A stretch of 64,000 bases of DNA from an uncultured Bacilli bacterium (GCA_944359055.1 CALVSO010000003.1:4832-68831); one strand, 5' to 3'; numbered from the stretch's first letter, positions 189 to 22,741 are shown. A program made the numbers and translations. Notes: a model not told the origin generated them from the letters alone.

Positions 189-1727
189 CTATATGCTTTT
201 CTTAAGATTTTGTAAATATGCAATACATTCCTTCATTACATCTTTACCAAATTTTTTATTTAAATAAGAAATAAATGGATCAATTTCATCTCTTAATAAA
301 GCAACACTTAATTGATCAAATTTTCTTAATATTTTTTTAGCAATAAAGTAATCAATTGCTTCTATTTCTTTACCACCACAAGCTACATAAACTGGAGTGA
401 ATACCCCTAATTGTTTCATAATACGATTACCAAATGCAATTCTAAAATGTTCAATAACGTAATCATCTATTTCTCCAACATAATTTAATCCTTTATCAGA
501 TAATGGATATTTTTCAACTGCATCAGCAAACAAACTATCTAAATAACTTGAATTAATTTTTACTACATCTTGCTCACGACATTTAAATGGATCTACTTTA
601 GTATTAATATCAATAGGCATTGCTCTATCATATACTTTATCAGTAACCATAAAAGTTGAATCATCATTATTAATAGTACCAATATACCAAAGATTTCCAG
701 GTAATTTAATTTTTCCTTTAATTAATTTTTTAGGATCATCTGGCCAAGCACTAGGTACTAAGTCTACTAACCATTCATCACGACTAGGCATTTCAAGAAT
801 TGATAATAAATCTGCAAAATAATATTCAACACGAGCTAAGTTCATTTCATCTAGAATAATTGTGTGAACATCATCATCAAATGAAGCAGCATATATTTCA
901 CCTAAAGCTTTAGTTTCATTAAATTTTTTTGTAAATTCATTAAAATATCCTAAGAAATCTGATTTATCTCTCCAAGATGGTTCAACAGAAGATACACAAG
1001 CATCCATTCCCATAAATTTTCCCCAAGCATAAGCTAAGGAAGTTTTACCTGTACCAGAGATACCTTGTAGAATAATTAACTTACCACAAGCTAAACCACC
1101 AAAGAAAGGTCTTAAAATTGAAAAATCATAATATAAATGTAATTGGCTAGCTGCGAAGCATCTGAAATCATCAATTAATTGTGCTAAAGTTGTATCGTTT
1201 TGATATTTTTTAATTTTACAACCTTCAAATTGTTCATCGATAGCCACCAATTTAGGAAATCTAATTCCTTTAATAGCAGCATCTTCTTCCTCTTTATTTT
1301 TTTCTTCATCACCAGTTGTATTTTCTTCATTTTCTTCTTCAGGATTTATTCCTAATTGAGAAACTTTCATAGCCATTAATTCTTCTCTTTCTTTCATTAA
1401 CTTTCTAACTTGATCATTTAAATTACCAATTTCAGTTAATAATTCATCTTTGCTTAAATTATTATTTAATTTTCTTATTATTTTTTTAACTAGCAAGAAA
1501 ATTAATAATGCTATTAATAAAACTATTATTATTAAACAAACAACACACATAACAACAAATACTTTTTCATTGCCATTAAAATTATCTTTATAACTTTCAA
1601 TTATTTTAGCGTAATCACTAAAACTAAACATTTGTTTAATACCATTAATAAATCCTTTAAAAGCATTAAACAATCCATCAAAAAAGATAGATATAAATTC
1701 GTAAAAAAATCTTAAAAATGTATTCAT
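189..1727 (-). CDS. membrane-anchored AAA+ ATPase, McrB/AAA_5-like (N-terminal TM helix plus coiled coil, C-terminal P-loop domain)
   Basis: Walker A LIILQGISGTGKTSLAYAW. McrB/AAA_5-like second motif TIILDEMNLARVEYYFADLLSILE. One hydrophobic helix (VVMCVVCLIIIVLLIALLIFLLV) and a KE-rich coiled-coil linker precede the ATPase domain. Confidence 0.65.
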   Translation of the reverse strand: MNTFLRFFYEFISIFFDGLFNAFKGFINGIKQMFSFSDYAKIIESYKDNFNGNEKVFVVMCVVCLIIIVLLIALLIFLLVKKIIRKLNNNLSKDELLTEIGNLNDQVRKLMKEREELMAMKVSQLGINPEEENEENTTGDEEKNKEEEDAAIKGIRFPKLVAIDEQFEGCKIKKYQNDTTLAQLIDDFRCFAASQLHLYYDFSILRPFFGGLACGKLIILQGISGTGKTSLAYAWGKFMGMDACVSSVEPSWRDKSDFLGYFNEFTKKFNETKALGEIYAASFDDDVHTIILDEMNLARVEYYFADLLSILEMPSRDEWLVDLVPSAWPDDPKKLIKGKIKLPGNLWYIGTINNDDSTFMVTDKVYDRAMPIDINTKVDPFKCREQDVVKINSSYLDSLFADAVEKYPLSDKGLNYVGEIDDYVIEHFRIAFGNRIMKQLGVFTPVYVACGGKEIEAIDYFIAKKILRKFDQLSVALLRDEIDPFISYLNKKFGKDVMKECIAYLQNLKKSI

Positions 1728-1730
1728 AAA

Positions 1731-3767
1731 CTACTCTCCCCAATAACTTCCTATTTTACTTGCTATATCATCATAAGCAATTTTATTGTGTAATTCCTCT
1801 TTAATTGATGATAAAACATCAATTGATTCAAACATTTTCCCTTTTACTCTTTTATCGACAAATATGTATTCCATTGCTTCAACAATACCTTGATCTTTTG
1901 ATTTTACTGCTGAAGTTTTTAAATCAACGGCAAATCTATATCCATCTTTAATTAATGATTTAATAATCTTTTTATTCTTTGATAATTCTTCATATTGTGC
2001 TAAAACAATAATATTATTTTTAGCGTATTCATCACCAAACAAATTAAATATTTTATCTAATTTATTAGATTTAGTATATAAACTTTCTGGTATATAGAAT
2101 ATATATTTTTTATTAAAATCAGCATTCAACATATCTTTAACAACTTGTACCAGTAATAATGTTAATAAAACTTCTATTTTATCTTCAGCAACAATACCAT
2201 CATAATAAGTTTTATCTACAATATAATCACTATATACTTTACTAAAATTGATATTATGATTTAATTCAACGGCATAAACATTTTTTATTGATAAATTATT
2301 ATAATTTAATTCAAATAAACTTGTTTCTAATTTTTCGATTGATTCTTTAATCACTGATTTATAAGTTCTTTGAATTTTTAATATATTACTAATCATAGAA
2401 TTAATTGTTTTAGGATCAACTTCAGTTCCGATTAATTTAACCATCTTATTTTTATAAGTTTGTTTTTTTATTTTAGTATCATCGATAACTAAATATGTAT
2501 GTTCTAAATACATAATCAAAGTAAATATATTAGTGTATTTTTTAACCTTTTCGCTATATTTATTATCAGTACCTTTATATGCTTTAATCATTTTTTCTGC
2601 TGCTTCTTTTAATGCATTTTCAATTCTAGTATTCATATTACGGCCATTATACTCAACATTGACATCTCCGCAATAATTATAATATTTACCATCAATATAT
2701 ACTCTTAAGAAATTTTCTCTAATTGTTGCTTCATTTGTTTTTAAATTTTCACCATTATTTAAAACTTCAATTATTTCTTTTAGTTCTTCTTCTTTCATAA
2801 ACATAATTTTTTCAATTATATTTTTGAATTTTTTCTTTTTATTTTTTAACATTTCTAATTTTAATTCTACTTCATTAGATTTAACTTCTTCTTCTTTTTC
2901 TATGATCTCTGGTTGCTCTTCTTCAATTTCAATTTTTTTAGCATAAGCATTTTCAATTTCATCTTTATCAACTTGAATCATTCTAAAATACATAGTTTTA
3001 TCCAAATCTTCAGCTTCTAAAGGTTTTAAATCAATAATTGTCTTATCTAATTTCTCATCTTTTACTTCTTCTACTTTTGTAACTTTTACTTCTTGAACTT
3101 CTTCTTTTATATTGCTTTTAATTTTTTCTGACTTTTCTTTAATATACTTATCATTGATTGTTTTTTTATTATTATTTTTAATTAATTTAATAATATTTTT
3201 TATAAATATTTTTATCTTTTTAACTACATTTGCCATAAATACATCAAATTTTTTCATATCTTTTTCCTTCTTATTCTTCTTAATTGTTAATGTTACTAAA
3301 TAAACTGTAATAATAATTGCAACTAAAACATAAGGATTAAATATTGTTTTTTTAAATATACCAAAAGCAGGTAATACTTTGACAACTTTTCCAACTATTT
3401 GCTCTTGTGTAATTGGATCATCCTTAACATCATTAGCATCACCTTTAGTTACATAAGTACCTTGGTATGCCTCAATAACTCTATGAGTTATAAATTCACC
3501 ATCTTGTTTAAATGTAATAATATCATCTAATTTTATATTTTTAGAATACTTAACAACAATCCAATCGCCAGGTTCAACTGCTTCCCCCATACTTCCTGTC
3601 TGCACTTCAAATACAGAGTAACCAAAAAAACTAGAGTAATCATTACCTAATAATTTGACTTGGATATTGTTATATATAGAAATTAGTAAAACTATTCCAA
3701 AAATAAAAATCAATATATTTAAACCGATATTGGCAACTTTTTCTAAAATTTTACCTTTATTTACCAT
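1731..3767 (-). CDS. sipW-like: SipW-type (archaeal/ER-type) signal peptidase I domain fused to an about 500 aa charged/coiled-coil C-terminal region
   Basis: Residues about 40-160 align with B. subtilis SipW: VQTGSMGEAVEPGDWIVVK matches LSGSMEPEFNTGDLILVK; DDIITFKQDGEFITHRVIE matches GDIITFMQDQNTAVTHRIV; TKGDANDVKDDP matches TKGDNNAAADSAP. Catalytic Ser (GSM) and His (THR) are present. A TM helix precedes and another follows the domain, then a 500 aa K/E-rich extension. Confidence 0.75.
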   Translation of the reverse strand: MVNKGKILEKVANIGLNILIFIFGIVLLISIYNNIQVKLLGNDYSSFFGYSVFEVQTGSMGEAVEPGDWIVVKYSKNIKLDDIITFKQDGEFITHRVIEAYQGTYVTKGDANDVKDDPITQEQIVGKVVKVLPAFGIFKKTIFNPYVLVAIIITVYLVTLTIKKNKKEKDMKKFDVFMANVVKKIKIFIKNIIKLIKNNNKKTINDKYIKEKSEKIKSNIKEEVQEVKVTKVEEVKDEKLDKTIIDLKPLEAEDLDKTMYFRMIQVDKDEIENAYAKKIEIEEEQPEIIEKEEEVKSNEVELKLEMLKNKKKKFKNIIEKIMFMKEEELKEIIEVLNNGENLKTNEATIRENFLRVYIDGKYYNYCGDVNVEYNGRNMNTRIENALKEAAEKMIKAYKGTDNKYSEKVKKYTNIFTLIMYLEHTYLVIDDTKIKKQTYKNKMVKLIGTEVDPKTINSMISNILKIQRTYKSVIKESIEKLETSLFELNYNNLSIKNVYAVELNHNINFSKVYSDYIVDKTYYDGIVAEDKIEVLLTLLLVQVVKDMLNADFNKKYIFYIPESLYTKSNKLDKIFNLFGDEYAKNNIIVLAQYEELSKNKKIIKSLIKDGYRFAVDLKTSAVKSKDQGIVEAMEYIFVDKRVKGKMFESIDVLSSIKEELHNKIAYDDIASKIGSYWGE

Positions 3768-3863: not shown

Positions 3864-5474
3864 TTAATCATTCTCTTTAATTTCTTTAGCAACAATTTTT
3901 TCAACTTGCACAATAAACCAAATTTTTTCAATTGTTGTATCACTTTTTTCTATTTTATTTACTCTTAATATCAATAATATTTTATTAAGTAAATTTTTAA
4001 GATTATCTTCATTTAAATCATCTTCACTAATATTAATACTATTTAATCGATATTTATTACTAATTGTTTTAGCTATATTATTAGTAGAGAAAATTGGTAC
4101 TCCTGTAATAATAATATTAGTTGGATTCATTGCAAACAAATCAAAATTATCGCTATATTTAATAATTTCATCATAATCAGTTATATTATAAACTTTTTGA
4201 ATAGTTAATTTTTTGAAATAATCAAAACTATAATATAAGTTTAAAACATCAGATATAGTTAATGTATCATTTAATATCATCATTACTTTATCTTTGAAAT
4301 ATTCAATATCATAAGTTTTATATAACTCATATAATTCTTTTGCTTTTAAAACTGATTGTAATTTTAATTGTTTTAAAGCACTATCAGATCTAAATTCAAA
4401 TAATCCTGGTCGACCACTAAAGATTTTTTTATTTAATTTTTCTAATTCATTTTCTTTAGTTTCTATTTGATCAATAATAGTTTTTAAACCTTTATACTCT
4501 TTTTTATCAGTAGTTAATAATTTTTCATATTCATCTTTAAAATATTTGAACATCGGATAAAATTCTAAATAATTTTGATATTCTAAAATATTTAATTTTA
4601 ATTTTTCTAAAGCTGGCGCTACTTTATCAACATCAGTAACTTCTGGAATTAAAGAATCAAATGCTGTTTTGCGTCCTTTACTATCACTTAAATATTGTTC
4701 GATATCTAATTCTTTAGTTTTAGCCATAGCTATTATGTCACTAATAGTTTCTTTACTAGCCAAATTTAAATCAATATAAGCATCTTGTAATTTTTCTAAA
4801 CAGTGATTATAATCTTTAATTCTATTTTTCTCCATTACTTCTTTTTGTAACGTCAAAATATAATTATTTAATTTACGACTATTTTTCTTAATTAGTTTTC
4901 TAAAATTTAATTCAATATGTTGAATAAGTTCAGGATTTACCCAATAAATTTGTTCAAAAATTTCTGATACCTTATCATAGCTTTTTAATCTTCTATTTCT
5001 TACTTCTAAAAAAGCAGTCATATATTCATGAACATAACAAGTATAATTAAAATCATCACTTTCTAAATGAATACCTGCTTGTTCAAATTTATCTAATAAA
5101 CCATTTATTATTTCATTTAAAGATTTGAAATTAAATGTATCATAATTATTAATTTGATATAGTAAATCATCAAAACACATTTTTTCGACATAAGTATTAG
5201 TTGGATTTAAAAGAAATTTAACATTTTCTAAAGTTTCTAATTTTTCTGTTAATTTATCTATATCAGTTGATTCCTTAACTTCAAAACTTTTAGCTTTAGC
5301 AATTAAATAATTTCTAGTACTGGTTTTATATTCTTCATATCTTTCAATTATGTTATCAATTGTTTCATTAAATTTCTTTTTATTTGTTTTAGTTTTAGTA
5401 GGCATAGTGGAAATTAATGTTTTTTTTGCTTCAATATCTTTATTTATAAATTCTAAAAAATTATTCATCTTCAT
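3864..5474 (-). CDS. hypothetical cytoplasmic coiled-coil protein
   Basis: 536 aa ORF with no TM segment, K/E-rich with heptad-like stretches. Same strand and tight spacing with the surrounding locus. Confidence 0.45.
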   Translation of the reverse strand: MKMNNFLEFINKDIEAKKTLISTMPTKTKTNKKKFNETIDNIIERYEEYKTSTRNYLIAKAKSFEVKESTDIDKLTEKLETLENVKFLLNPTNTYVEKMCFDDLLYQINNYDTFNFKSLNEIINGLLDKFEQAGIHLESDDFNYTCYVHEYMTAFLEVRNRRLKSYDKVSEIFEQIYWVNPELIQHIELNFRKLIKKNSRKLNNYILTLQKEVMEKNRIKDYNHCLEKLQDAYIDLNLASKETISDIIAMAKTKELDIEQYLSDSKGRKTAFDSLIPEVTDVDKVAPALEKLKLNILEYQNYLEFYPMFKYFKDEYEKLLTTDKKEYKGLKTIIDQIETKENELEKLNKKIFSGRPGLFEFRSDSALKQLKLQSVLKAKELYELYKTYDIEYFKDKVMMILNDTLTISDVLNLYYSFDYFKKLTIQKVYNITDYDEIIKYSDNFDLFAMNPTNIIITGVPIFSTNNIAKTISNKYRLNSINISEDDLNEDNLKNLLNKILLILRVNKIEKSDTTIEKIWFIVQVEKIVAKEIKEND

Positions 5475-5620: not shown

Positions 5621-6667
5621 CTATTCATATCCTTGTGTATCTTTTAAGAAATTTAATGAAATATATATTTCAGCTCCATCAGAATCTGTTTCTAGACTAT
5701 CAATATCTTGTCCTTCAATCCAAACATACACTCTTGTTTTTGTTATACCATCTGGTACAGTAAATAATGGTTTTTCAAAATCATCATCAGTCATAGTTTC
5801 TTGTAATTCAAAATAATTTGGGTCAAGATTTGGTGAACCAGATACCGTATTTGCTACAAATATAGGACCACCTGCTCTTGTAAATGCATATGTTGGAAAC
5901 TCTTGTCCATCGATTAAATTAACGCCATATTTAGTAGCCCTTTCAATGGAAAGATTAGAATGCGCCTTACTATTTGGCTCAAAAATAATAGAATAACAAT
6001 TATTATTACATTCAATATTTTGAACTTCATTTGCTGGTGCATCTTTAGCAACAGATCCTAACTTAACAATACCAATACGAGCAGAATTTAATAAACCAAT
6101 CATTTCTTCTTCTGCATCTTTTTCCATTGTAATTGAAGTACCATATTCAAAATATAAATTATCGCTTACTGGAGATCCTGAATCATTTTTAAAAAACAAA
6201 TCAAATGCTATATAATTATTGTACTCATTTCTGCCACCTTCATGCATTAAATTAGTTCTTATATAACCATTATTTTTATCCTTATTTGGATATCTAACCC
6301 CACTACTTGAAAACATATTAAATATCGGACTATCATGATTAGTAATTCCATTTGAAGAAATAGGTACTAATCCACCACCTGCCCATTGACTTGTATTATT
6401 AGGATAAGTATATCTTAATCCTCTTATAAGTTCATCAGCAGATATAATTAAATCAGTATCAAAATTAATACCATCTAAAGAAATAGATAATCCAGTATTT
6501 TTTTTAACTGTCATAGTAAATGTTTTTACTCTAACATTTAAATTGGTTGAAAACCACGCATATGTTGAAAAAATAAGCAAAATACCTACTAATACCATAA
6601 CAGTGATAGTAACTTTTTTATTTGTTTTTTCGATAATTCTTTGTCTAAAAGTATTTTGTTTTTTCAT
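5621..6667 (-). CDS. secreted TasA/camelysin-like protein, paralogue class D (SipW-cognate type signal)
   Basis: N-terminus is a basic stretch, then an h-region, then FSTYAWFSTNLNV (compare TasA GGGTWAAFND). C-terminus TKTRVYVWIEGQDIDS is shared with the other paralogues. Confidence 0.6.
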   Translation of the reverse strand: MKKQNTFRQRIIEKTNKKVTITVMVLVGILLIFSTYAWFSTNLNVRVKTFTMTVKKNTGLSISLDGINFDTDLIISADELIRGLRYTYPNNTSQWAGGGLVPISSNGITNHDSPIFNMFSSSGVRYPNKDKNNGYIRTNLMHEGGRNEYNNYIAFDLFFKNDSGSPVSDNLYFEYGTSITMEKDAEEEMIGLLNSARIGIVKLGSVAKDAPANEVQNIECNNNCYSIIFEPNSKAHSNLSIERATKYGVNLIDGQEFPTYAFTRAGGPIFVANTVSGSPNLDPNYFELQETMTDDDFEKPLFTVPDGITKTRVYVWIEGQDIDSLETDSDGAEIYISLNFLKDTQGYE

Positions 6668-8098: not shown

Positions 8099-9346
8099 TT
8101 ATTCACCTAATGTTGGTCTCTTATCAACATCACTTGGTAATTCAGGATCACCATCATAGTTGATATCTTCACCATATAATTGTTCTTTAGTAAATCCAAA
8201 TGAAAGTGAGATTTGTCCTCCTAATGAAGCAAAATCATAGTTATCAACGTCTTGTCCTTCAATCCAAATATAAACTCTAATTTTTGTAATACTATTTGGA
8301 GCTAAATAGAATAATTCTGGTCTTTCAGTTCCTTCTAAATTTTTCATTGTATCTGTGAATGTTGGAACTTTCATTAATTTACCTTTTGTAGCAGTCATAG
8401 CAACTGAAGCAGTATAACCATTGTATTCAGTACCATCATATACATCTACTTGATCAGTGTAATTAATTTCACCACTTACTGCATATGTTGGAACAAAAGT
8501 ACCATCAGTAACAGTACCACATGTACCACTAAATGAACTTGGATTAGTAATATCAGCCGCATTTCTCTTTAAGCATGATTTTTCATACCATTTAATAGCA
8601 TTATTTACGTGTTTTGTATCATTTGGTTCCCAAATTGTAGCATCTCTATTTGTACAAATACTAGAAACGCCATCACCACCTGTACAATTAATTCCTTGAA
8701 TTTTTGAAGTATTTTCTTCAGTTGCAACTACACGTCCAATTTGTGCGAAAGCAACTCTTACTGAATTTTCAATACCAGCTGTTTTTTGTCCAGCAGCACC
8801 AGTTTTAACAACTGATTGTGGAGTTAAATAAATTCCTTCTTCATTTTTTATATCAACTGTATCATAATAAGCATTTCCTGATAAGTTTTTAACAAATAAA
8901 TCAAATGCTACATACCCATCAACTTCTTTAGCACCAGTATTTTTTACTCTTGCAGCCATTACACGATAACCACCAGGTGATGCTGTAAAACTTCCTTTTT
9001 CATACATTATAAGTCTTGATGAATCAGTATCGATTTTTCCAACTGTTGACATTGGAATCAATCCTTTGCCACCCCAACTGTTTGTATTAGTCAAATATGT
9101 TCCTTTAACACCAGGATCACTATAATTACTTTCATTAATTGTTACTGTGTCACCGAAATTTTTACCATCTAATGAAAGTGATAAACCATCGATTGCAGCA
9201 ATTTCTACATCGAATGCGGTAACGTTAACAGTTTTCATACCAATAAACCATGCATAGGTTGAAACTGATAAAATAGTAGCACATAAACCAGCTCCAACAA
9301 GCAATCTTTTGACACGTTTTTCATGTCTTCTATTTCTTTTTTCCAT
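8099..9346 (-). CDS. secreted TasA/camelysin-like protein, paralogue class A (copy 2)
   Basis: N-terminus MEKRNRRHEKRVKRLLVGAGLCATILSVSTYAWFIGMKTVNVTAFDVEIAAIDGLSLSLDGKNF. C-terminus ITKIRVYIWIEGQDVDNYDFASLGGQISLSFGFTKE. Confidence 0.7.
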   Translation of the reverse strand: MEKRNRRHEKRVKRLLVGAGLCATILSVSTYAWFIGMKTVNVTAFDVEIAAIDGLSLSLDGKNFGDTVTINESNYSDPGVKGTYLTNTNSWGGKGLIPMSTVGKIDTDSSRLIMYEKGSFTASPGGYRVMAARVKNTGAKEVDGYVAFDLFVKNLSGNAYYDTVDIKNEEGIYLTPQSVVKTGAAGQKTAGIENSVRVAFAQIGRVVATEENTSKIQGINCTGGDGVSSICTNRDATIWEPNDTKHVNNAIKWYEKSCLKRNAADITNPSSFSGTCGTVTDGTFVPTYAVSGEINYTDQVDVYDGTEYNGYTASVAMTATKGKLMKVPTFTDTMKNLEGTERPELFYLAPNSITKIRVYIWIEGQDVDNYDFASLGGQISLSFGFTKEQLYGEDINYDGDPELPSDVDKRPTLGE

Positions 9347-15900: not shown

Positions 15901-16298
15901 TCTACATTATCATATATTTCATTAGTATTTTCTTTTACATAAAAGGTTGTATTATTTAATTTATATTTAATACCTTCTTCATCATAACTAAATATACCAT
16001 CATTTAAAACAATATCCTTATTTAACTCAAAATATGTATCAGCATAATCAGTAGTTTTTAACATTTGCGCAAAATAAGCTAATTCATTACCATTAGAAAT
16101 AATATAAGGATCATCAATTGTACCACTACCACTTCGATAACTAGTAGCTACATTACCATCCCAAACTTCAATATCTTTAATAGTATTTCTATTTTTATAT
16201 CTTGCCAAACTAGGTATCATAATTGAACAAATCAATATTAAGCCTAAAATTAAAATTAAATAATTTTGCTTAGGTATTTTTTTCAATAAATCTTTCAT
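12969..16298 (-). CDS. large N/T-rich secreted surface protein: SipW-like signal, parallel beta-helix N-cap motif, tandem Ig-like repeats
   Basis: Signal ...IMIPSLARYKNRNT. DPYIISNGNELAYFAQMLKTTDYADTYFELNKDIVL resembles the cap of right-handed beta-helix adhesin or pectate-lyase-like domains. There are two repeats of about 95 aa (GKYVIYAKVVDNNDNIYYLNSDLIIVD and GTYILYVKVIDNADYITYVNSEYIIFD). No LPXTG motif. Confidence 0.6.
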   Translation of the reverse strand: MKDLLKKIPKQNYLILILGLILICSIMIPSLARYKNRNTIKDIEVWDGNVATSYRSGSGTIDDPYIISNGNELAYFAQMLKTTDYADTYFELNKDIVLNDGIFSYDEEGIKYKLNNTTFYVKENTNEIYDNVDKTGTKIKSINLFESLNNFKGNLDGNYFRIYGLYISSENEEVGLFTNLSGNVSNLYVENSMIYGGNITAGIASSATNCNITNVLYNGYVVGTNEELTKTETFNVPTISNFSNIMIPYIKGDIINVTIKGSIGENKIKINNNEVTGDFSLDLGNISKIVIDTNITLDNLTYDVTYNYGISSGIVAKADKITLNNVINKANIIGKNSVGLVGYTNDITINKSYNNGTLSGDKTSGLINKLHGKGTLNKVYSTGNVTHLINNVTNGNLTINNSFATETTYLVNSIVSSVVNFKNSYYTDGEITNEGSIFGTVTLTDINNLKDKEFVINNLQFNEFIDSTDLTSNAENVWVYEEGSFPILATDDINNPIANIHVGTYSWNNLGYELNSIKFNKATAFSIEQIDPLRPFKEVSYYISDKELTKEEIQNLTFSNYENIVELNNEGKYVIYAKVVDNNDNIYYLNSDLIIVDLSGSDVTINMNDKTWNKLNNPTIKNYINENTDLTITAIDNLSGIKSVEYYLSNEIINEDKLDSVSWNAYNDKITINNKGTYILYVKVIDNADYITYVNSEYIIFDGYSINSLNAGRNNNFTTNYITNKSSITLNVSYQSSYNYNEGKTHSIVSNTSLPLNTKITLIDNNQNKVYTYTVDKQDTIYNLTLFKEVGSDTLFSEDNYTNQINENFTIVLDFKNTDITDIEDIKIAMELNNQDSVIKTLTTTLKPFNIYESSASINISSNYSDTIIYNSDSTNTIDITSNLVYDFINDKQINDTTYEDKIMGLNVSLVDKNGNIVNKEYLKNLTFKVNGKEYSPNNDGIVRIPAIGNLEITTSVDNSKLETGTYYFKIKALASYDGKYANSYSNEITVPVTVTNNVTIDYGFDVSFNNVITDNIIDFDIIKTGNFTNPTVRVSLYKKQVLSAYNQDYSLVDLSNYTTTKLNKITDNIYELPNKLELKNMLGGYKFVFELYDGTTKIGTIEKKFIVR

Positions 16299-16350
16299 AA
16301 ATATCTTCCTTTACCACTTATTTATTCTTTAACTTTTCTACCTTATATCA

Positions 16351-16379
16351 ATTATAACATAATTCGACATCTTTTGCAC
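16351..16379 (-). promoter_or_regulatory. promoter for the large-protein operon: extended -10 TGTTATAAT, weak -35 (GTGCAA), Spo0A 0A box TGTCGAA (16363-16369) in the spacer/-35 region
   Basis: Reverse strand reads GTGCAAaagaTGTCGAAttatgtTATAAT. The arrangement resembles Spo0A-activated sigma-A promoters, which have poor -35 elements. Confidence 0.45.
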
Positions 16380-16385
16380 CTATTT

Positions 16386-16415
16386 TCAAAAAAAATATCA
16401 CACAAATTGTGTGAT
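16386..16415. terminator. bidirectional intrinsic terminator (ATATCACACAA-at-TTGTGTGATAT, flanked by A8 and T4)
   Basis: Perfect 11-bp inverted repeat downstream of the class B1 gene. Confidence 0.6.
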
Positions 16416-16423
16416 ATTTTAAA

Positions 16424-17740
16424 TTATTCATTTGTTGTTGGAACATCTGGTCCATCATAATCAGGGAAATCTGATTGATTGTATCTTTCTTTAGTGAATC
16501 CAAAGTTAATAGTAATTTTCTTTCCTAAAGATGCGAAATCATAGTTATCAATATCTTGTCCTTCAATCCATACATAAACTCTTAATTTAGTAATACTATT
16601 TGGAGCTAAAGTCATAAATTGTGGACGATCTTTACCTTCAACATTTTTCATTGTATCAGTAAAGTATGGGAATTCAATTAATTTCATTGCACCTTTTTGT
16701 CCTGGTTGTGTTCCTTCTGCAGCAGCATTGTATTCTGCTAATGTATTAGTATTAGCTGTATATTTATTATAAGCAGTACCATCATAAATATTAACATTAT
16801 CATCAATTCCAATTGTTCTACTAATAGCATATGTTGGATAAGCAGTTGTTTTATTTAATGTTTTACATGGTGTAGCATCAGTATAAGATGCGCTTGAATT
16901 AACATCTGCACCAGTTCTTTCTAAACATGATTCATTATACCAATTAATAGCATTTTGTACGTGTTTAGTATCATTTGGTTCCCAAATTTGAGCATCTCTA
17001 CAAATACCTGTAACATGTTCTGGATCTTCTGCATCATCTAAACTATCAGCACAAGTCATACTTGTTACTAATTTTTGATTTTCTGTTACATCTGTATCTA
17101 AAGCAGCACTTACACGACCTAATTGAACAAATCCAACTCTTACAGAATTTTCAATACCAGCTTTACCTTCACCATCTAAAGCAACTGTAACAGCTGAATT
17201 AGTATTTAAATAAATTGCTTCTTCATTTTTGACATTATTTTCTGGATAATAAGGATTTCCTGATAAGTTCTTAACAAATAAGTCAAATGCAATATAACCA
17301 TCACCTTCAACATATTCTTTTGAACTAGTTGATCCACCTACTTGTTTAGTATGGTTGTCAACTCGACTAGATAACAATCTATAACCACCTGTAACAGCAG
17401 TTAAACTTCCTTTTTCATATAACTTCATTCTTGATGAAGTTGCATCCATTTCACCAATTGAAGACATTGGAATTAAACCTTGTTTAGGTTGATCTAACCA
17501 TTGATTTGCATTTCCATCATAAGCTGGTGCATTTTTTGCATCTAATGTATATGACCAATCCTTACCATTCATTGATAAGAATAAGCCTTCGGTTGTTGCA
17601 ATATTAATGTCGAATTCTGTTACATTAACAGTTTTCATACCTATAAACCATGCATAAGTTGAAACTGATAATAAAATAGCACATAAAGCACAAAGAGTAA
17701 TCAGATTTCTTACTTTTTGATTTTTCTTTCTTCTTTTCAT
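16424..17740 (-). CDS. secreted TasA/camelysin-like protein, paralogue class B (copy 1)
   Basis: N-terminus MKRRKKNQKVRNLITLCALCAILLSVSTYAWFIGMKTVNVTEFDINIATTEGL. C-terminus ITKLRVYVWIEGQDIDNYDFASLGKKITINFGFTKE. A 49/50-nt tract is identical with copy 2 (16952-17001 versus 7261-7310). Confidence 0.7.
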   Translation of the reverse strand: MKRRKKNQKVRNLITLCALCAILLSVSTYAWFIGMKTVNVTEFDINIATTEGLFLSMNGKDWSYTLDAKNAPAYDGNANQWLDQPKQGLIPMSSIGEMDATSSRMKLYEKGSLTAVTGGYRLLSSRVDNHTKQVGGSTSSKEYVEGDGYIAFDLFVKNLSGNPYYPENNVKNEEAIYLNTNSAVTVALDGEGKAGIENSVRVGFVQLGRVSAALDTDVTENQKLVTSMTCADSLDDAEDPEHVTGICRDAQIWEPNDTKHVQNAINWYNESCLERTGADVNSSASYTDATPCKTLNKTTAYPTYAISRTIGIDDNVNIYDGTAYNKYTANTNTLAEYNAAAEGTQPGQKGAMKLIEFPYFTDTMKNVEGKDRPQFMTLAPNSITKLRVYVWIEGQDIDNYDFASLGKKITINFGFTKERYNQSDFPDYDGPDVPTTNE

Positions 17741-17750
17741 TTTATACCTC

Positions 17751-19169
17751 CTAATTTATTGTCCATATATCATCTACTCGCGTAGCTGTTTTTTTAACTC
17801 CACCATCTTTGAATGTAAATTTAGTCATCCAACTTGGTAAAGTAAATTCCTTTTTGTCATTATCATAAGTAATTTTTGAATTTGAAATATCAGTTATTTC
17901 ACCAGTATTAACATAAGATACTGTTTGGTCTCTAACTACATCATCTGGTAATTCTGGATCACCATCATAATCGATATCTTCTCCATAGAATCTTTCTTTA
18001 GTAAATCCAAATGATACAGAGATCTTTCTTCCTAACGAAGCAAAATCATAGTTGTCTATATCTTGTCCTTCTATATAAATATAGATTCTTACCTTAGTAA
18101 TACTATTTGGAGCAAGTGTTATAAAATCAGGTCTATTAACTCCTTCATTAAACTTATCAGTATCAGTAAAGTAATCTACTTTGTATAGTTTACCTTTTTG
18201 ATATGAATTTGCTATTGATTTAGTATAGCCATTATATTCTTTACCATCATACACATCAATTTGATCTGTATAATCAATAACTCCACTTACTGCATAAGTT
18301 GGATAATAAATTCCATCTTTAATAGTTTTACAAGGTCCACTAAATGAAGCAGGATTAGTTATATCACTGCCAATTCTTTTACGACATGATGTTGTATACC
18401 AACTAATAGCATTAGTAACATGTTTAGTGTCATTAGGTTCCCAAATTTGAGCGTCCCTATCAGCACATATACCAGTAACATCATCATCAGATTTACAAGT
18501 AATGCCTGTAATAACATCAACATCGTCTTCTACTGCTATAACACGTCCGATTTGTGCGAAAGCTACTCTTACAGAATTTTCAATACCAGCTTTTATTTCT
18601 CCATCTTCAGCAACTTTTACTTCTGATTCTGGATCTAAATAAATTGCTTCTTCGTTTTTTGGATTTAATTCTTTATAGTATGCATGTCCTGATTTATTTT
18701 TAATAAATAAATCAAATGCTACATATCCATCAACTTCTTTAGCGCCAGTATTTTCTACTATTGCAGCCATCACACGATAACCACCAGGTGATGCTGTAAA
18801 ACTTCCTTTTTCATACATTATAAGTCTTGATGAGCCAGTATCAATCTTACCAACTGATGAAACAGGAACTAATCCTTTGCCACCCCAACTGTTAGTGTTT
18901 CCAGGATAACTTACAGTTTTATGATTTTCTTCATTAATCGTTACTGTTGTTTCCCAATTCTTACCATCTAACGATAATAATAAACTATCAATAGCAGCAA
19001 TAGAAACATCAAAACTAGAAACATTAACAACCTTCATACCAATAAACCATGCATAAGTTGAAACGGTTAGAATAATCGTACATAAAACAGCAGCAACAAG
19101 TAATTTTTTTACTCTTGTTTCATGTTTTTTCTTACGTCTTTTCATAATCCCTTCTTTCTTATTCTGCAT
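17751..19169 (-). CDS. secreted TasA/camelysin-like protein, paralogue class A (copy 1) with a 55 aa C-terminal extension; the real start is probably the second Met (about 19145)
   Basis: ...LLVAAVLCTIILTVSTYAWFIGMKVVNVSSFDVSIAAIDSL. The other paralogues begin at the basic MKRRKK segment, and GAAGGGA precedes that internal ATG. Confidence 0.7.
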   Translation of the reverse strand: MQNKKEGIMKRRKKKHETRVKKLLVAAVLCTIILTVSTYAWFIGMKVVNVSSFDVSIAAIDSLLLSLDGKNWETTVTINEENHKTVSYPGNTNSWGGKGLVPVSSVGKIDTGSSRLIMYEKGSFTASPGGYRVMAAIVENTGAKEVDGYVAFDLFIKNKSGHAYYKELNPKNEEAIYLDPESEVKVAEDGEIKAGIENSVRVAFAQIGRVIAVEDDVDVITGITCKSDDDVTGICADRDAQIWEPNDTKHVTNAISWYTTSCRKRIGSDITNPASFSGPCKTIKDGIYYPTYAVSGVIDYTDQIDVYDGKEYNGYTKSIANSYQKGKLYKVDYFTDTDKFNEGVNRPDFITLAPNSITKVRIYIYIEGQDIDNYDFASLGRKISVSFGFTKERFYGEDIDYDGDPELPDDVVRDQTVSYVNTGEITDISNSKITYDNDKKEFTLPSWMTKFTFKDGGVKKTATRVDDIWTIN

Positions 19170-19851
19170 CTATTGGCTTAAAATTCATACGAACTTTAAA
19201 TTCACCACCTAAAATATTATCAGTACAATCAGGATCTTCGCCTTCAATCCATAAAACTATTGTATACTTGTCAATATCGTTAGGTTTAAAATTAGTAACA
19301 TCTTCACTCATGATTATTTTATTATCAATAAATGGAACTGTATTTGGTTCTACTTCTCCTTCACTTGATAATTTTGCATAAGTTTGATATTCTCTATTCT
19401 TATAAATTCTAACTCTGATGGCAGCATCAACATTCTTGATAACATCATCGATAATAACCTCTCTAGTATAACCAGCAACTTCATCTCCAGTATTTTCAAT
19501 ATAAAATGTATATACTAAATAACTATCGCCATTATGTGATCCACCTTCGTAATCTTTGATTTCTTCCGGTAACCATATTTCCTTAATACTATTAAAAGTT
19601 TCAGGAGCTTTAGCTAATAATTCTGTACGATATACTTTATATTGAAAATCATCATAAATAATTATGCCATTATCCAAATAAAGATTTTTATCGAGTGTTA
19701 TGCTAAAATTACCATTATTATAAACAATACCCATTACAAAATATAAAATAAGTAAAAGTAAAAGTAATAATATCACAACTAGTTTAAATCTTTTCTTAAG
19801 TTTTTTTTCTTTTTTTAATTTATCGGTAGTTTTAGTAAATTTACTTTCCAT
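19159..19851 (-). CDS. membrane-anchored WxEGxD-domain protein, paralogue class C (copy 1)
   Basis: 230 aa; MESKFTKTTDKLKKEKKLKK, then a TM helix, then NNGNFSITLDKNLYLDNGIIIYDD. C-terminus KYTIVLWIEGEDPDCTDNILGGEFKVRMNF. Confidence 0.6.
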   Translation of the reverse strand: MESKFTKTTDKLKKEKKLKKRFKLVVILLLLLLLILYFVMGIVYNNGNFSITLDKNLYLDNGIIIYDDFQYKVYRTELLAKAPETFNSIKEIWLPEEIKDYEGGSHNGDSYLVYTFYIENTGDEVAGYTREVIIDDVIKNVDAAIRVRIYKNREYQTYAKLSSEGEVEPNTVPFIDNKIIMSEDVTNFKPNDIDKYTIVLWIEGEDPDCTDNILGGEFKVRMNFKPIDAE

Positions 19852-19904
19852 CTTTTACCTACACCCCTTTTTGTACACTACGATATCCTTTACAATACAA
19901 TATA

Positions 19905-19956
19905 ATTATAACATACTTACTTTTTTTGTCAATATTAATTGTCAATGATTGTCGAA
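19905..19956 (-). promoter_or_regulatory. near-consensus sigma-A promoter for cassette 1 (TTGACA-16-TGTTATAAT; -10 at 19905-19910, -35 at 19927-19932) with upstream TGTCAAT, TGTCGAA (19950-19956) and TGTCAT repeats
   Basis: Reverse strand reads atgacatttttCGACAAtcaTTGACAAttaataTTGACAaaaaaagtaagtatgtTATAAT. A perfect 0A-box 7-mer is present, and the leader is conserved with cassette 2. Confidence 0.5.
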
Positions 19957-20025
19957 AAATGTCATATATGTTATTTAGCAATAAAAAAAGTCAAATGTTA
20001 TAATTTGACAATTATTCTTTATTAA

Positions 20026-20790
20026 TTAAGAACCTAATAAAGATAAAATCATATTAATATCTATGTGACTAAAATAAATAATTAAGGCTGCCATACTTAG
20101 AAAAGGTCCATATGGTATTTCGTGATTTTTATTTGTTTTCATTATAAATACTGATACAGGCAAAGCGATAAAAGCTGACAAAAATATAGTAATAATTGAT
20201 AATTCCCAGCCAATTATTAAACCAAAAACAGCCATTAATTTAATATCTCCACCGCCCATAGATTCTCTTTTAAAAATAAAATCGCCAAATAATTTTAGTA
20301 ATAACATAATTATAAAAGATATCAAAGCACTTAATAGTGAATTTAACAAAACATCTAATCCGTTAATAAAATATATTTCAATCATTAATAAAATACTAAA
20401 AACAATTAAAACACTATCTTCAATAATCATATAATAATAATCACTTAAAATAACTATTATCAATAAAGATGTAAATGTTAAAGCAATTATTAAATCAAAT
20501 GAAATACCAAATGATAAATAGCAAATTACAAATAATAAACCACAAATTATTTCAGATATTGGATAAAATATTGATATTTTATCTTTACAATTAACACACT
20601 TACCTTTTTGTAATATATAAGATAAAATAGGTATTAATTCTAAAGGTTTTAATTTATGATTACATTTTGGACAATGGCTACCCGGATATAAAATTGATTC
20701 TCCTTTAGGTAATCTATAAGCCACAACATTATAGAAGGAACCAAAAATGGTTCCTAGTATAAACAACCCTATTATAATACTTAATTCCAT
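20026..20790 (-). CDS. pilD: prepilin peptidase (A24 family, PilD/ComC-like)
   Basis: N-terminal CPKC...CVNC zinc-binding tetrad, catalytic GGGDIKL motif, multiple TM helices. Confidence 0.8.
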   Translation of the reverse strand: MELSIIIGLFILGTIFGSFYNVVAYRLPKGESILYPGSHCPKCNHKLKPLELIPILSYILQKGKCVNCKDKISIFYPISEIICGLLFVICYLSFGISFDLIIALTFTSLLIIVILSDYYYMIIEDSVLIVFSILLMIEIYFINGLDVLLNSLLSALISFIIMLLLKLFGDFIFKRESMGGGDIKLMAVFGLIIGWELSIITIFLSAFIALPVSVFIMKTNKNHEIPYGPFLSMAALIIYFSHIDINMILSLLGS

Positions 20791-20800
20791 AAAATCCCCC

Positions 20801-22741
20801 TTACACTTGAATTGAACTATAGAAACTAAACATTGGAATTACAATTGATAATACTATTCCACCAACCGTAAATGTTAAGAATAAAATCAAAGCTGGTTCA
20901 ACAAATGTTTTAATTCTTGTAACAGCATTTCGATGTAATTCTTGATAATAAGCTGATACTTTTTGCATCATCTCAGCTAATTGACCAGTTCTTTCACCTG
21001 TTGTAATCATTTCATAAGCTGGTACTGGGAAAGCCCAGTGATCTTTAAATGCTAATGAAATTCTTTCTCCTTTAGCTAAATTAGTAATAGTATCTAATAT
21101 TAGCATTTTATATATTTCATTATTTGTCATTTTATTTAATATTTCCATACTATCTGTTATAAAAACATTATGAGCTAAAAGGGATGCGAATGTTTTTGTA
21201 AACATAGTTACTTCATTATAAATAATAACATTACCAAAAATAGGCATGTGCATTAAAAACCACTGAACAAACGTTTTAAATGCTTTAATATTTTTATATA
21301 AATAAACAAATATTAATATAAATACACATACACCAATAATTAAGAATAAATAATTTTTTTGTAAAAATTCACTTGTGTTCATAACAAATATAGTGATTCC
21401 TGGTATCTTTGCACCATCAATTCCTTCATAAATTGCAACGAATTGTGGAACTACCCATACCATAATAAATATTACAGCTGCAATTGCTAAAACAAATATA
21501 ATAGCAGGATAAGTCATTGCGGTAATCATTTGTCTTCTTGTTTTGTCTGATTCAGTAAAATAATCAGCCATGTTATCTAAAACTTCTGGCAATTCACCAG
21601 TCATTTCTGATGTCTTAACCATATTGATAAGTAATCTTGGAAAAGCATTTCCTTGTTTATCCATTGCAGTTGAAAAATTATCTCCCATGGTTAAATCATA
21701 TATCATCGTTCTAAAAATTCTTGAATAACCTTTATTTTTAAATTGATGTGACAATATTTTTAAAGATTCAACTAATGTAATACCAGCTTTAATATATGTG
21801 GATAATTGAGTACAAAAGAAAATTAAATCCTTAGTTTTTATTCTCTTTCTATTAGCATGATTACCATTTCCATAGATTCTTTGAATCCATTTATTAGTTT
21901 CAATACTATATACTTCATTTCCTTCACTTAACAAAAATGAATGAACTTCAACTTTAGAATATGCTGGAAATAATCCTTTAATAATTTTTCCATCTGGACT
22001 TTTAGCAACATATTTATACATAATTTTTTCTTCACTTTTTTCGGCATCTGCACCATCAAAATCCAATAATAATGCTTGCCTATTAATATCTTTTTTATTT
22101 TGAGCATTTTTAACAAATCTATTATTAGTAAATAATTCTTTTATTTTTTTGGGAATACTTCCAATAGCTAAGAAAAATGAATTTATATAATCATTAACTG
22201 TTTTCTTTTCTAAAGTAACATTTTCATTAATATAGATATCAGCTTTAGTTTTTTCTTTCTTCTCTTGTTTTTTCTGTTCTATTTCTTCTTTTTCTTTTAT
22301 TTTTAATTCTTGTAATCTTTTTTTATTCTCTTCTTTTATTTGCCTATTTCTCTCTCTAGCAGCCATTTTCTTTTCTTGTTCCATTTGTTGTTTAGCACGC
22401 ATTTTCTCATTCATTTCATTTACTTTAATAATTCCTCTAACTATTAAAACTATTGGGAAAGCAAAACCAAACACAACATATTTTATAAACAAATATACAA
22501 ATCTTGAACTAACTACAAATCCAATAAATATATATTTTATAAATTTGTAAACAAAATAAGATAAATATAAGAATAAATAACTTATCATCTTAAAAAAGTA
22601 ATATAGAGATGATACTACTATATCAATCAATACAAATAATGTTACAAAAAAACCTATATTTATATATTTAAAAATTACAAACAAAAAACGTACCATTTTA
22701 TACACATATATAAATGGCAACAAATATATTGGTTTATTCAA
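20801..22741 (-). CDS. PilC/GspF-like inner-membrane platform protein with an extra N-terminal domain of about 230 aa (4 TM plus coiled coil); the canonical PilC N-terminus (MYKYVAKSPDGKIIKG) begins at an internal Met near 22021
   Basis: Paired T2SSF-type region (KDLIFFCTQLSTYIKAGITLVESL...) and C-terminal TM segments. In-frame N-terminal extension rich in F, Y and K, with a K/E coiled coil. Confidence 0.65.
   Translation of the reverse strand: MNKPIYLLPFIYVYKMVRFLFVIFKYINIGFFVTLFVLIDIVVSSLYYFFKMISYLFLYLSYFVYKFIKYIFIGFVVSSRFVYLFIKYVVFGFAFPIVLIVRGIIKVNEMNEKMRAKQQMEQEKKMAARERNRQIKEENKKRLQELKIKEKEEIEQKKQEKKEKTKADIYINENVTLEKKTVNDYINSFFLAIGSIPKKIKELFTNNRFVKNAQNKKDINRQALLLDFDGADAEKSEEKIMYKYVAKSPDGKIIKGLFPAYSKVEVHSFLLSEGNEVYSIETNKWIQRIYGNGNHANRKRIKTKDLIFFCTQLSTYIKAGITLVESLKILSHQFKNKGYSRIFRTMIYDLTMGDNFSTAMDKQGNAFPRLLINMVKTSEMTGELPEVLDNMADYFTESDKTRRQMITAMTYPAIIFVLAIAAVIFIMVWVVPQFVAIYEGIDGAKIPGITIFVMNTSEFLQKNYLFLIIGVCVFILIFVYLYKNIKAFKTFVQWFLMHMPIFGNVIIYNEVTMFTKTFASLLAHNVFITDSMEILNKMTNNEIYKMLILDTITNLAKGERISLAFKDHWAFPVPAYEMITTGERTGQLAEMMQKVSAYYQELHRNAVTRIKTFVEPALILFLTFTVGGIVLSIVIPMFSFYSSIQV

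Follow-up and report, generated by a model that had tools for sequence, protein, structure and literature searches.

The window, which is the whole stretch of DNA that was analysed (64,000 nucleotides from an uncultured Bacilli bacterium, GCA_944359055.1 CALVSO010000003.1:4832-68831), contains a locus of 17 genes at positions 189-22741, of which 16 are co-oriented on the minus strand and one (10364-10975) is divergent. An initial annotation of this DNA had counted 18 co-oriented genes plus a divergent one; the contiguous block and its divergent member were recovered, with the count corrected to 16 plus one. The 1109-aa repeat protein, McrB-like ATPase, PilD and PilC that it listed were all found in the region. 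The fibre system proposed below extends beyond the left edge of the window. Its features are:

1-171, minus strand: first 57 codons of the gene for a McrC-like protein of about 374 aa (X374), which leaves the window at its left edge
189-1727, minus strand: McrB-like NxD-motif GTPase, predicted to be membrane-anchored, whose 55 conserved N-terminal residues precede a TM helix (about 56-80), followed by a coiled coil and an AAA+ domain
1731-3767, minus strand: intact SipW/SEC11-type signal peptidase (TM helix, catalytic domain, TM helix) with a cytoplasmic domain of about 500 aa
3864-5474, minus strand: U536, 536 aa, without signal peptide or recognisable domain, present in 57 related loci
5621-6667, minus strand: class A' paralogue, 348 aa, TYAWF signal, 27-29% identity to the large paralogues (hhalign E 5e-53), candidate minor subunit
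6729-8030, minus strand: class A1 copy b, 433 aa, STYAWF signal, 67% identity to 16424-17740 and 52% to 8099-9346, candidate major subunit
8099-9346, minus strand: class A2 copy b, 415 aa, the protein whose structure was modelled, candidate major subunit
9366-10061, minus strand: class C copy b, 231 aa, compact and related to class A, long TM helix at the N-terminus, no cleavage motif, candidate membrane anchor
10127-10154, minus strand: predicted perfect sigma-70-type promoter (TTGACA, 16 nt, TG-TATAAT) ahead of class C copy b
10364-10975, plus strand: D203, 203 aa, secreted, with the signal motif (signal end TYSRY), divergent orientation kept in 17 loci
11030-11563, minus strand: SipW-like pseudo-peptidase, 177 aa, two TM helices, TM-domain-TM layout kept
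11573-12430, minus strand: S285, 285 aa, secreted, with the signal motif (signal end TLAKY), always following S178 in related loci
12423-12959, minus strand: S178, 178 aa, the locus member nearest TasA in sequence
12969-16298, minus strand: BIG, 1109 aa, secreted, with the signal motif (signal end SLARY) and repeats of Ig-like modules, candidate adhesin or tip protein
16424-17740, minus strand: class A1 copy a, 438 aa, placed by paralogue identity and signal motif
17751-19169, minus strand: class A2 copy a, 472 aa, placed in the same way
19159-19851, minus strand: class C copy a, 230 aa, 54% identity to 9366-10061, candidate membrane anchor
19905-19932, minus strand: predicted perfect sigma-70-type promoter ahead of class C copy a, between the fibre genes and PilD

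The conservation of this cassette, raised in the initial annotation as a matter for comparative genomics, proved to be strong. Gene order is kept in 75 related loci (synteny comparison), and the same gene set (GTPase, DUF2357, peptidases, class C and class A) recurs in two distant loci, L080 (from a Clostridia MAG) and L081. The locus is a real, conserved gene cluster of uncultured gut Firmicutes; it is carried by uncultured gut bacteria that bear the labels Bacilli, Tenericutes or Mollicutes, and by Clostridia-type MAGs. Tandem, stoichiometric-looking A2-A1 pairs recur across the related loci. In the window, each C-A2-A1 module is preceded by a perfect consensus promoter and a hairpin follows A1b. 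Both promoters match 12 of 12 consensus positions and carry the extended TG, and about 85 nt around the one at 10127-10154 are near-identical to the sequence ahead of class C copy a. The hairpin after A1b, at 6717-6691, is terminator-like and sets the class A' gene (5621-6667) apart from the genes upstream.

Of the 17 locus proteins, 9 carry a motif of the form [ST][YLWF][AS]x[FY] directly after the N-terminal hydrophobic stretch; the remaining 38 ORFs of the window are all without it, a split far beyond chance. A TasA-type signal is thus common to several secreted proteins, as the initial annotation had stated, although their number is nine rather than at least ten, the class C pair being without the motif. 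The cleavage position in TasA itself (TWA|AF) is confirmed by the fibre chain 8aur, which begins at A28. The HMM for the SipW-cognate signal (TIGR04088) matched no window protein in the NCBIfam search. In the first 120 residues of A1 and A2, the most conserved 10-residue window is the mature N-terminus (0.93-0.94 versus a protein mean of 0.70); past the cleavage site, the N-terminus is disordered or of low confidence in the predicted model.

Likeness to TasA in the mature domains is less direct. No window protein matches PF12389 (Peptidase_M73; IPR022121) of Pfam at E<=0.1, or the TasA, camelysin and TapA models of NCBIfam at E<=1, and the paralogues that had been called TasA/camelysin-like therefore find no counterpart among these family models. 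Two of 68 remote relatives of S178 do match PF12389 (best E 8.5e-5). The alignment of about 50 residues reported between 12423-12959 and TasA exists (hhalign E 5e-5), but it consists mostly of signal peptide, and the S178 family profile falls to E 1.6e-3 against TasA once signal peptides are removed. Similarly, the family profiles of D203 and S178 are linked at 95% with the signal peptide and weakly without it. After this removal, the profiles of the small classes, of class A and of TasA lose most of their similarity to one another.

The paralogy of classes A, A' and C, in contrast, is clear on mature domains. The five large STYAWF paralogues (5621-6667, 6729-8030, 8099-9346, 16424-17740 and 17751-19169) share 27-69% mutual identity. 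Class C aligns with class A at hhalign E 2e-4 to 1e-3 with signal peptides removed, and the two have a C-terminal motif in common (YTIVIWVEGSDPECTD..GGEF versus RVYIWIEGQDVDNYD..GGQI). Judged by these alignments, class C is a homologue of class A with a putative TM anchor, and the two proteins of about 230 aa look like uncleaved signal-anchor proteins. A homologue of class C (19159-19851) is present in L080 (E 1.6e-65). The predicted models are beta-sandwiches without enzyme-like matches, at modest scores, and the top structural matches, also of modest score, are all subunits of linear donor-strand filaments. That locus proteins may bind calcium is a guess from their sequences.

BIG gives E 4e-8 against an OmpL47-type domain of NCBIfam, below that model's cut-off. 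It is conserved at 30-43% identity, and its counterparts in L080 and L081 reach 2600-2700 aa. In the 57 loci that carry it, U536 always has the 348-aa paralogue on one side and the giant protein on the other, and a homologue occurs in L081 (E 4e-20). Its family has no PDB match and no Pfam match; the protein is probably cytoplasmic.

Of the two SipW-type peptidases described initially, one is intact and the other is not. In 1731-3767, the catalytic Ser (GSM), His (THR) and Asp (GDxN...D) are in place between the two TM helices, and residues S59, H95, D110 and D116 are invariant in nine orthologues; the protein matches SEC11C/A of the PDB (E 1.7e-6 to 2e-5) and Peptidase_S24 of Pfam (24.6 bits, cut-off 23.3). 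In L080 and L081, its C-terminal domain has a gene of its own, immediately upstream of the GTPase. In 11030-11563, no Ser, His or Asp is conserved at the catalytic positions in an alignment of 32 orthologues, TIGR02228 is matched at 21.4 bits (cut-off 51.85), and the homologue in L081 has EMEP where SipW has SMEP. The alignments thus mark this protein as a SipW homologue that appears to have lost catalysis. Wherever a locus extends far enough, the McrC-like gene is followed directly by the gene for a second intact peptidase, which here falls outside the window.

The McrB-like GTPase, which the initial annotation had treated as incidental, is the most conserved and most unusual component of the locus. 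Its identity across loci is 63-78%, and it is found in the two distant loci (one of them from a Clostridia MAG) at E 1e-194 and 4e-184. An hmmsearch against McrB of the PDB (6hz4) gave E 5.6e-5, and in the alignment the Walker A (GISGTGKTS), Walker B (ILDEMN) and GTINNDDS sequences are invariant. The last of these reads as N-N-D followed by D, which fits the shortened NxD criterion of CoCoPALM. A heptad-rich stretch lies at residues 90-125. No likeness of the GTPase N-terminus to FtsB was found, either as a Pfam DivIC/FtsB match in nine orthologues or as BLAST similarity to the window's own DivIC-like protein. The gene next to it encodes X374, whose translation (MDNFKCEVEKNVKDK...) matches L004:19171-20295, a region with E 1.3e-11 to DUF2357 of Pfam (the McrC N-terminal domain). 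An alignment of nine sequences of the X374 family shows no invariant PD-(D/E)xK nuclease motif. In every locus that reaches that far, the GTPase sits between two signal peptidases.

This arrangement leads to CoCoPALM, in which a TM/coiled-coil NxD McrB and a McrC homologue occur with signal peptidases and are predicted to be pilus-linked (Bell et al. 2024; PMC11090510). The locus is alike in its NxD McrB-like GTPase, which carries a TM helix and a coiled coil at the N-terminal end, its adjoining DUF2357 McrC homologue of coiled-coil character and its flanking signal-peptidase-family genes, and by sequence the GTPase, its DUF2357 neighbour and the flanking peptidases appear to match that system. 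CoCoPALM was named in 2023-24 in one paragraph, its description deferred (PMC11090510); the combination of TM/coiled-coil McrB, McrC and signal peptidase is thus named in one paper and has never been characterised. TasA-like cargo, classes A and C, the pseudo-peptidase, the fusion of peptidase and cytoplasmic domain and the giant protein, all present here, are absent from that paper. The claim that the organisation is undescribed was accordingly overstated: the CoCoPALM link is in print (PMC11090510), as are multi-paralogue TasA/BsaA operons with signal peptidases (PMC11580942).

On balance, we favour the reading of the locus as a TasA/SipW-type surface-fibre system joined to a McrBC-derived GTPase module, that is, a CoCoPALM system. 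The dedicated TasA-fold fibre or appendage first suggested for it remains the best explanation, given the signal, the intact peptidase, the anchored paralogue and the conservation, support that is structural and contextual and does not extend to family HMMs; membership of PilD and PilC and a second live SipW within the locus do not stand. Nine precursors would leave via Sec and would be cut after [TS]-x-[AS], in SipW/SEC11 fashion, by 1731-3767 and the second intact peptidase just outside the window. The freed N-terminus (WFIGMKTVNV... in the large subunits) would act as a donor strand that fills the beta-sandwich of the neighbouring subunit, and A2/A1 pairs, which would be highly expressed, are therefore proposed to polymerise into a heteropolymeric shaft. 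Uncleaved class C may anchor this shaft in the membrane, and the small TasA-like proteins and the 1109-aa protein may act as adaptors, as adhesins or as minor subunits. In the cytoplasm, the McrB-like GTPase, as a membrane-anchored hexamer, would be tied together with its McrC-like partner to the peptidase through the 500-aa domain of the latter, and this complex may control or drive processing and assembly. Gene content, signal motif, catalytic residues, fold similarity, conservation and synteny are what the analysis shows; from these we infer polymerisation by donor strands, the part played by each subunit and any coupling to GTP hydrolysis. A stronger form, in which the McrBC-derived complex (NxD McrB hexamer, McrC-like partner and SipW-fused cytoplasmic domain) is an obligatory motor or gate for TasA-like donor-strand fibres, is tentative, and we would sooner doubt it than assert it. 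We know of no NTPase in the assembly of TasA, AbpA or cannulae, so such a role for the GTPase would be without precedent.

Several known systems can be compared. Relative to tapA-sipW-tasA of Bacillus subtilis and sipW-tasA-calY of B. cereus, the locus encodes 9-11 cargo proteins that fall into three or more size classes, and its main subunits are of 415-470 aa, as against 261 aa in TasA. No match to the Peptidase_M73 HMM was found among the window proteins. Unlike the Bacillus operons, the locus has two intact peptidases (one outside the window) and a dead one, as well as a paralogue with a TM anchor, the probably cytoplasmic U536 and the McrBC-like GTPase pair. The sipW-bsaA-bsaB-bsaC operon of C. 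perfringens is closer in that several TasA-like paralogues, a signal peptidase and a large secreted partner share one operon; heteropolymer assembly by donor-strand exchange has already been suggested, and the BsaA/TasA survey, which describes an N-E-K isopeptide triad, makes no mention of a McrBC-like module (PMC11580942). The TasA-superfamily filaments of archaea (AbpA bundling pili, Pyrodictium cannulae and S. acidocaldarius threads) are mostly single-subunit and without chaperone or NTPase. Chaperone-usher class 5 pili (CfaB, CooA, CS17) are built by Gram-negative periplasmic machines, whereas no chaperone or usher homologue is present here.

The same proteins could instead form a non-filamentous surface structure, such as a lattice, coat, sheath or hydrogel-like matrix. 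We regard this as unlikely, as the top structural matches all belong to linear donor-strand filaments, and a TM-anchored paralogue together with a giant adhesin-like protein fits a fibre with a base and a tip.

It is considerably less probable that the McrB/McrC-like pair acts as a defence module, or derives from one, and simply lies beside a passive TasA/SipW operon, or that the whole cluster serves cell-surface phage exclusion. The GTPase domain does match a PADLOC candidate defence model, PDC-M26A (E 5e-36), the protein is 25-40% identical to plasmid-borne AAA ATPases, and CoCoPALM shares its NxD branch with the CoCoNuT restriction systems (PMC11090510). However, no protein of the cluster is conserved as well as the GTPase in near and distant loci alike, its position between the two signal peptidases is fixed, it is membrane-anchored and without a DNA-binding domain, and its McrC-like partner has no conserved nuclease motif. 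To our knowledge, synteny of the kind seen here is absent from defence islands.

PilD (Pfam A24, E 3e-34) and PilC (T2SSF, E 5e-50) lie directly upstream of the cluster on the same strand, and T4P-assisted secretion of bsa operon products provides a precedent (PMC11580942) for secreted proteins that rely, as C. perfringens BsaC does, on a type IV pilus-like machine. Such reliance is very improbable here. The pair is missing beside the cluster in L006, L019 and L076, which are 85-96% identical to the window, and in all 75 related loci; a perfect promoter separates it from the fibre genes, and neither a PilB ATPase nor a prepilin-type N-terminus was found among the window ORFs checked. Bsa-type T4P dependence is unsupported because the adjacency is not conserved, and PilD and PilC, once counted as part of the system, are best left out of it. 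A type IV pilus or type II secretion-like system was likewise rejected, only PilD and PilC being present and their adjacency being lost in close relatives. Equally improbable is a set of unrelated secreted enzymes or binding proteins that share a signal-peptide type and form no polymer, for, despite the lack of family HMM matches and the weak mature-domain profile links between small classes, the models are beta-sandwiches with no enzyme-like or catalytic-domain matches, the A/A'/C paralogy is clear on mature domains and the A2-A1 tandem pairs recur.

TasA-type fibres are thought to self-assemble extracellularly and to need only a signal peptidase and a minor subunit. In the locus, TasA-type subunits and a GTPase motor taken over from McrBC restriction systems are kept in conserved synteny, and in this lineage the motor side is joined physically to the peptidase, which would imply regulated or energised assembly. 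If the obligatory-motor form is true, Gram-positive bacteria would have, in addition to sortase pili, type IV pili and passively assembling TasA, a fourth way of making surface filaments, one that depends on NTP, and a restriction-enzyme motor would clearly have been recruited to cell-surface biogenesis in abundant, small-genome uncultured gut Firmicutes. The present analysis also gives CoCoPALM, so far a name only, a concrete cargo and anatomy. The exceptional conservation of the subunits and the GTPase suggests a structure central to attachment to, or dependence on, hosts or partner microbes. Among the related clusters, one is found on a contig of 1.49 Mb, of which it would, at an estimated 25-30 kb, make up about 2%.

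The region 189-22741 comprises 16 minus-strand open reading frames and a single plus-strand one (D203, 10364-10975); the G+C content of the window is about 23%. The initial annotation had counted 18 co-oriented genes and one divergent gene; the divergent gene was recovered, but the co-oriented count is slightly too high because the intergenic gaps leave no room for further genes. All-against-all BLAST gave the following groups, named class A (large proteins A1 and A2, each in copies a and b, and the related A') and class C:

8099-9346 and 17751-19169, minus strand: A2 pair, 69% identity
6729-8030 and 16424-17740, minus strand: A1 pair, 67% identity
5621-6667, minus strand: A', 348 aa, 27-29% identity to the other class A proteins
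9366-10061 and 19159-19851, minus strand: class C pair, ~230 aa, 54% identity

A1 and A2 share about 50% identity. These groups indicate that a C-A2-A1 module is present twice in the region. Within class A (numbering of 8099-9346), C221, C231, C258 and C276 are invariant or near-invariant, and an invariant acidic motif, E363-G-Q-D-x-D368, is followed by N-Y-D; a related acidic motif also occurs in class C and D203. By analogy with archaeal cannulae and AbpX, the cysteines may form disulfides and the acidic motif may constitute a calcium site.

Each module is preceded by a promoter, recognized by sequence match:

19932-19905, minus strand: promoter, 12/12 consensus, extended -10, before a C-A2-A1 module
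10154-10127, minus strand: promoter, 12/12 consensus, extended -10, before a C-A2-A1 module

About 85 nt around the two promoters (10062-10240 and 19852-20030) are nearly identical, more so than the coding DNA, and carry three GACAA-type direct repeats (TTCGACAAT, ATTGACAAT and ATTGACAAA) at intervals of ~10-11 nt; the last repeat coincides with the -35 box. Together the repeats resemble a response-regulator binding site. A hairpin lies downstream of A1b (6717-6691), and a promoter before each module together with this hairpin fits bulk production of C, A2 and A1 with lower expression of the genes downstream. Elsewhere in the window, an OmpR-type two-component pair is encoded at 25680-27589.

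A TasA-type signal end, [ST][YLWF][AS]x[FY] directly after the N-terminal hydrophobic core, was found in nine locus proteins and in none of the 38 other window ORFs. The carriers are the five class A proteins, D203, S285 (11573-12430), S178 (12423-12959) and the 1109-aa protein (12969-16298); the type of signal is as initially annotated, but nine carriers fall short of the ten or more claimed. In TasA itself, cleavage between TWA and AF is confirmed by the fibre chain 8aur, which starts at A28. The motif is missing from class C; with a hydrophobic helix of 23 residues, these proteins resemble signal anchors that stay uncleaved.

Tests against the curated TasA/camelysin family were negative. 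Pfam and NCBIfam scans of all 17 locus proteins returned no match to TasA/camelysin, Peptidase_M73, TapA or TIGR04088, and no informative curated model matched any paralogue. Similarly, PDB sequence searches with the class A and S178 profiles, U536 (3864-5474) and the 1109-aa protein gave nothing useful, and a Foldseek search of the PDB with a class A model gave nothing below E 0.3. The best structural matches of that model had modest scores, and nearly all of the top eight are donor-strand filament subunits:

Highest-ranking structural matches of the class A model, with scores
Rank 1: TasA fibre 8aur, 5.3 (132 residues)
Rank 2: S. acidocaldarius thread 7pnb, 5.2
Ranks 3-6: class-5 pilins CooA, CS17 and CfaB, 4.9-5.1
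Rank 8: cannulae protein CanX, 4.6

For S178, TasA appeared in the PDB search at E 0.6-0.8 only. The protein contains the TasA-like block LxLxxLxPGxxxxYxFxVxN, and one orthologue (P0184) bears the NCBI name 'TasA family protein', which the NCBIfam models did not reproduce; among remote relatives, 2/68 match Peptidase_M73 and 4/102 match TapA. Profile-profile comparison including signal peptides linked the S178 family to TasA (81% probability), A2 (72%), and D203 and S285 (95-96%). These links are carried largely by the common signal peptide, and most vanished in a control in which the comparison was repeated on mature domains with signal peptides removed. What persisted was a certain link between A and A', and weak links of A and A' to C (E 2e-4 to 1e-3), of A' to D203 (E 1e-3) and of the S178 family to mature TasA (E 1.6e-3). 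Sequence comparison thus does not bear out a claim of TasA homology for every class. A, A' and C are best treated as one family whose predicted fold is most like TasA-type subunits, and S178 as a marginal TasA relative.

Two SipW-type peptidases had been proposed, and only one is intact. The N-terminal part of the product of 1731-3767 is a complete SipW/SEC11-type peptidase (TM, catalytic domain, TM) with invariant S59 (GSM), H95 (THR), D110 (GDAN) and D116, matching SEC11C in the PDB at E 1.7e-6. The Lys-rich stretch after TM2 places its C-terminal domain of ~500 aa in the cytoplasm. The product of 11030-11563 has the same TM-domain-TM layout and a KGDLV block, but conserved Ser, His and Asp are missing from its catalytic positions across 32 orthologues, and a distant orthologue reads EMEP where SipW has SMEP; these residues mark it as a pseudo-peptidase. 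A second intact SipW, SipW184 (SGSM, THE, GIAND), lies just beyond the window boundary, as seen in related loci. In two distant loci, the cytoplasmic domain is a free-standing gene of 325-329 aa (L080:11605-12594, L081:11546-12523) directly upstream of the GTPase gene. Such a pairing of a fused with a free-standing, neighbouring gene in different lineages is good evidence for a functional link between peptidase and GTPase complex. Comparison of the peptidase C-domain, U536 and the McrC-like protein with one another revealed no relationship.

The product of the GTPase gene (189-1727) opens with an invariant N-terminus of 55 residues, followed by a TM helix, a coiled coil and a McrB-type AAA+ domain (PDB McrB, E 5.6e-5) with Walker A and Walker B motifs and GTINNDDS, a shortened NxD signature followed by D. 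Its neighbour X374, a McrC-like gene, carries DUF2357, the McrC N-terminal domain (E 1.3e-11), and no conserved PD-(D/E)xK motif. Bell et al. (eLife 2024; PMC11090510) reported NxD McrB GTPases that carry a fused FtsB-like region (TM and coiled coil), combined with coiled-coil McrC homologues, and named the combination CoCoPALM in one paragraph, deferring its description to a future paper. The GTPase and X374 are the same combination, although FtsB homology of the GTPase N-terminus was looked for and not shown. The text supplementary files of that paper do not mention CoCoPALM, and literature searches found no follow-up paper and nothing relevant on RF39 and TasA.

A search with A2 returned more than 2111 clusters, and none of the best 120 (61-94% identity) has a Pfam domain or name. 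Scanning one genome per GTDB species gave 345 coding stretches; the best 75 loci, almost all from uncultured gut MAGs labelled Bacilli, Tenericutes or Mollicutes, served as targets onto which every window protein was mapped. This comparison established that the cassette is conserved, with a canonical order of C, A2, A1 (often repeated), A', U536, the 1109-aa gene, S178, S285 and pseudo-SipW, joined on either side, depending on the locus, by peptidase-fusion, GTPase, X374, SipW184, a ~405-aa LAWF-signal protein and divergent D203. The window holds a rearranged form that breaks off within X374; positions 171-1 (minus strand) hold the first 57 codons of this gene. Cluster size is estimated from the loci at ~25-30 kb, and a contig of 1.49 Mb carries one related copy. 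U536 (3864-5474, minus strand) is a 536-aa protein without a signal peptide, at a fixed place in the cluster and with 40-66% identity, and no relative was detected in Pfam or the PDB.

Two remote S178 relatives (~25% identity) are encoded in L080 and L081; the L080 relative belongs to a cluster labelled as a Clostridia MAG. Between them, these loci contain a 2600-2700-aa protein, SipW-like genes, a pseudo-peptidase, S178-like and S285-like proteins, the GTPase (E 1e-194 and 4e-184), DUF2357, a second SipW, a LAWF-type protein and D203. U536 is present in L081, and class C (E 9e-71) with two STYAWF class A proteins in L080. The cargo-GTPase association, as judged from these loci, is old. A prophage origin was rejected for class A because it had no match in 50,697 phage records.

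The locus thus combines cargo bearing a TasA-type signal with an intact SipW-type peptidase and a TM-anchored paralogue; subunits modelled as beta-sandwiches whose closest resemblance is to subunits of donor-strand filaments; and a GTPase/McrC-like pair, itself conserved, with ties to the peptidase. On balance, we favour a fibre system as the overall reading. The mature N-terminus of A1/A2 is the most conserved 10-residue window in the first 120 residues (0.93-0.94 against a mean of 0.70). Once exported by Sec and cleaved, each subunit would insert this freed N-terminus into the next, with its residues ~33-50 (WFIGMKTVNVTAFDVEI) as candidate donor strand, giving an A2/A1 heteropolymer that class C would anchor or end at the membrane. 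Minor, adaptor or adhesin roles would fall to S178, S285, D203 and the 1109-aa protein, in analogy to TapA, which complements TasA by strand insertion (PMC10151520). The pseudo-peptidase possibly holds signal peptides without cutting, and the GTPase complex may gate or power processing and assembly from the cytoplasmic side; that the GTPase is mechanistically required is a tentative proposal. A lattice or coat in place of discrete fibres seems unlikely.

The GTPase module could also be derived from defence and be a mere neighbour, as its PADLOC candidate match might suggest. Its extreme conservation, fixed synteny, membrane anchor and missing nuclease motif make this very improbable. The initial annotation had also included a PilD and PilC-like pair, and secretion dependent on type IV pili was considered as a rival reading. 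PilD/PilC are absent from this position in L006, L019 and L076 (genomes 96% and 85% identical to the window) and from the vicinity of the cluster in all 75 related loci, and a consensus promoter separates PilD from the first fibre gene. The pair was rejected as part of the system on this synteny, which leaves pilus-dependent secretion hardly credible; a set of unrelated secreted proteins is just as implausible.

The view that this organization had not been described holds only in part. SipW with TasA-like donor-strand fibres is a known principle, operons with several TasA-type paralogues are known (PMC11580942), and the McrBC-peptidase association has been named. Apparently undescribed are a TasA-signal cargo of the CoCoPALM system, the enlarged A1/A2 subunits with a TM-anchored relative, the dead peptidase, the peptidase fused to a cytoplasmic domain and whole-cluster conservation in small-genome gut Firmicutes.

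Several further features were observed. At 20026-22741 (minus strand), PilD adjoins a PilC homologue with an unusual N-terminal extension of ~240 residues, comprising several hydrophobic helices and a Lys/Glu-rich stretch; no PilB ATPase or prepilin-type N-terminus was present in the window ORFs checked. The block 19962-25081 (PilD, PilC, a YqfQ-like gene and BipA) lies away from the fibre cluster in close relatives. In the close relatives L001, L003, L006 and L076, an insertion of 1-2.4 kb, absent from the window (gap 16299-16423), separates A1a from the gene for the 1109-aa protein; in L076 the insertion encodes a 323-aa protein (12763-13734, minus strand) with a C-terminal hydrophobic helix, which reads like an NlpC/P60-type cell-wall hydrolase. 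Downstream of the L081 cluster (18974-20600), fragments with YD/RHS-repeat-like sequence (…TYTYDNANYKDQL…TYDGIGNPLKIGN…) suggest a polymorphic toxin gene beside that fibre system. Finally, a run of small genes at 45560-46577 (minus strand) reads like YabP, YabQ and DivIC, and 22860-23201 (plus strand) encodes a YqfQ-like protein (Pfam E 2.4e-8). Genes of these types are typical of spore-forming Firmicutes, and here they are carried by MAGs labelled Tenericutes or Mollicutes.
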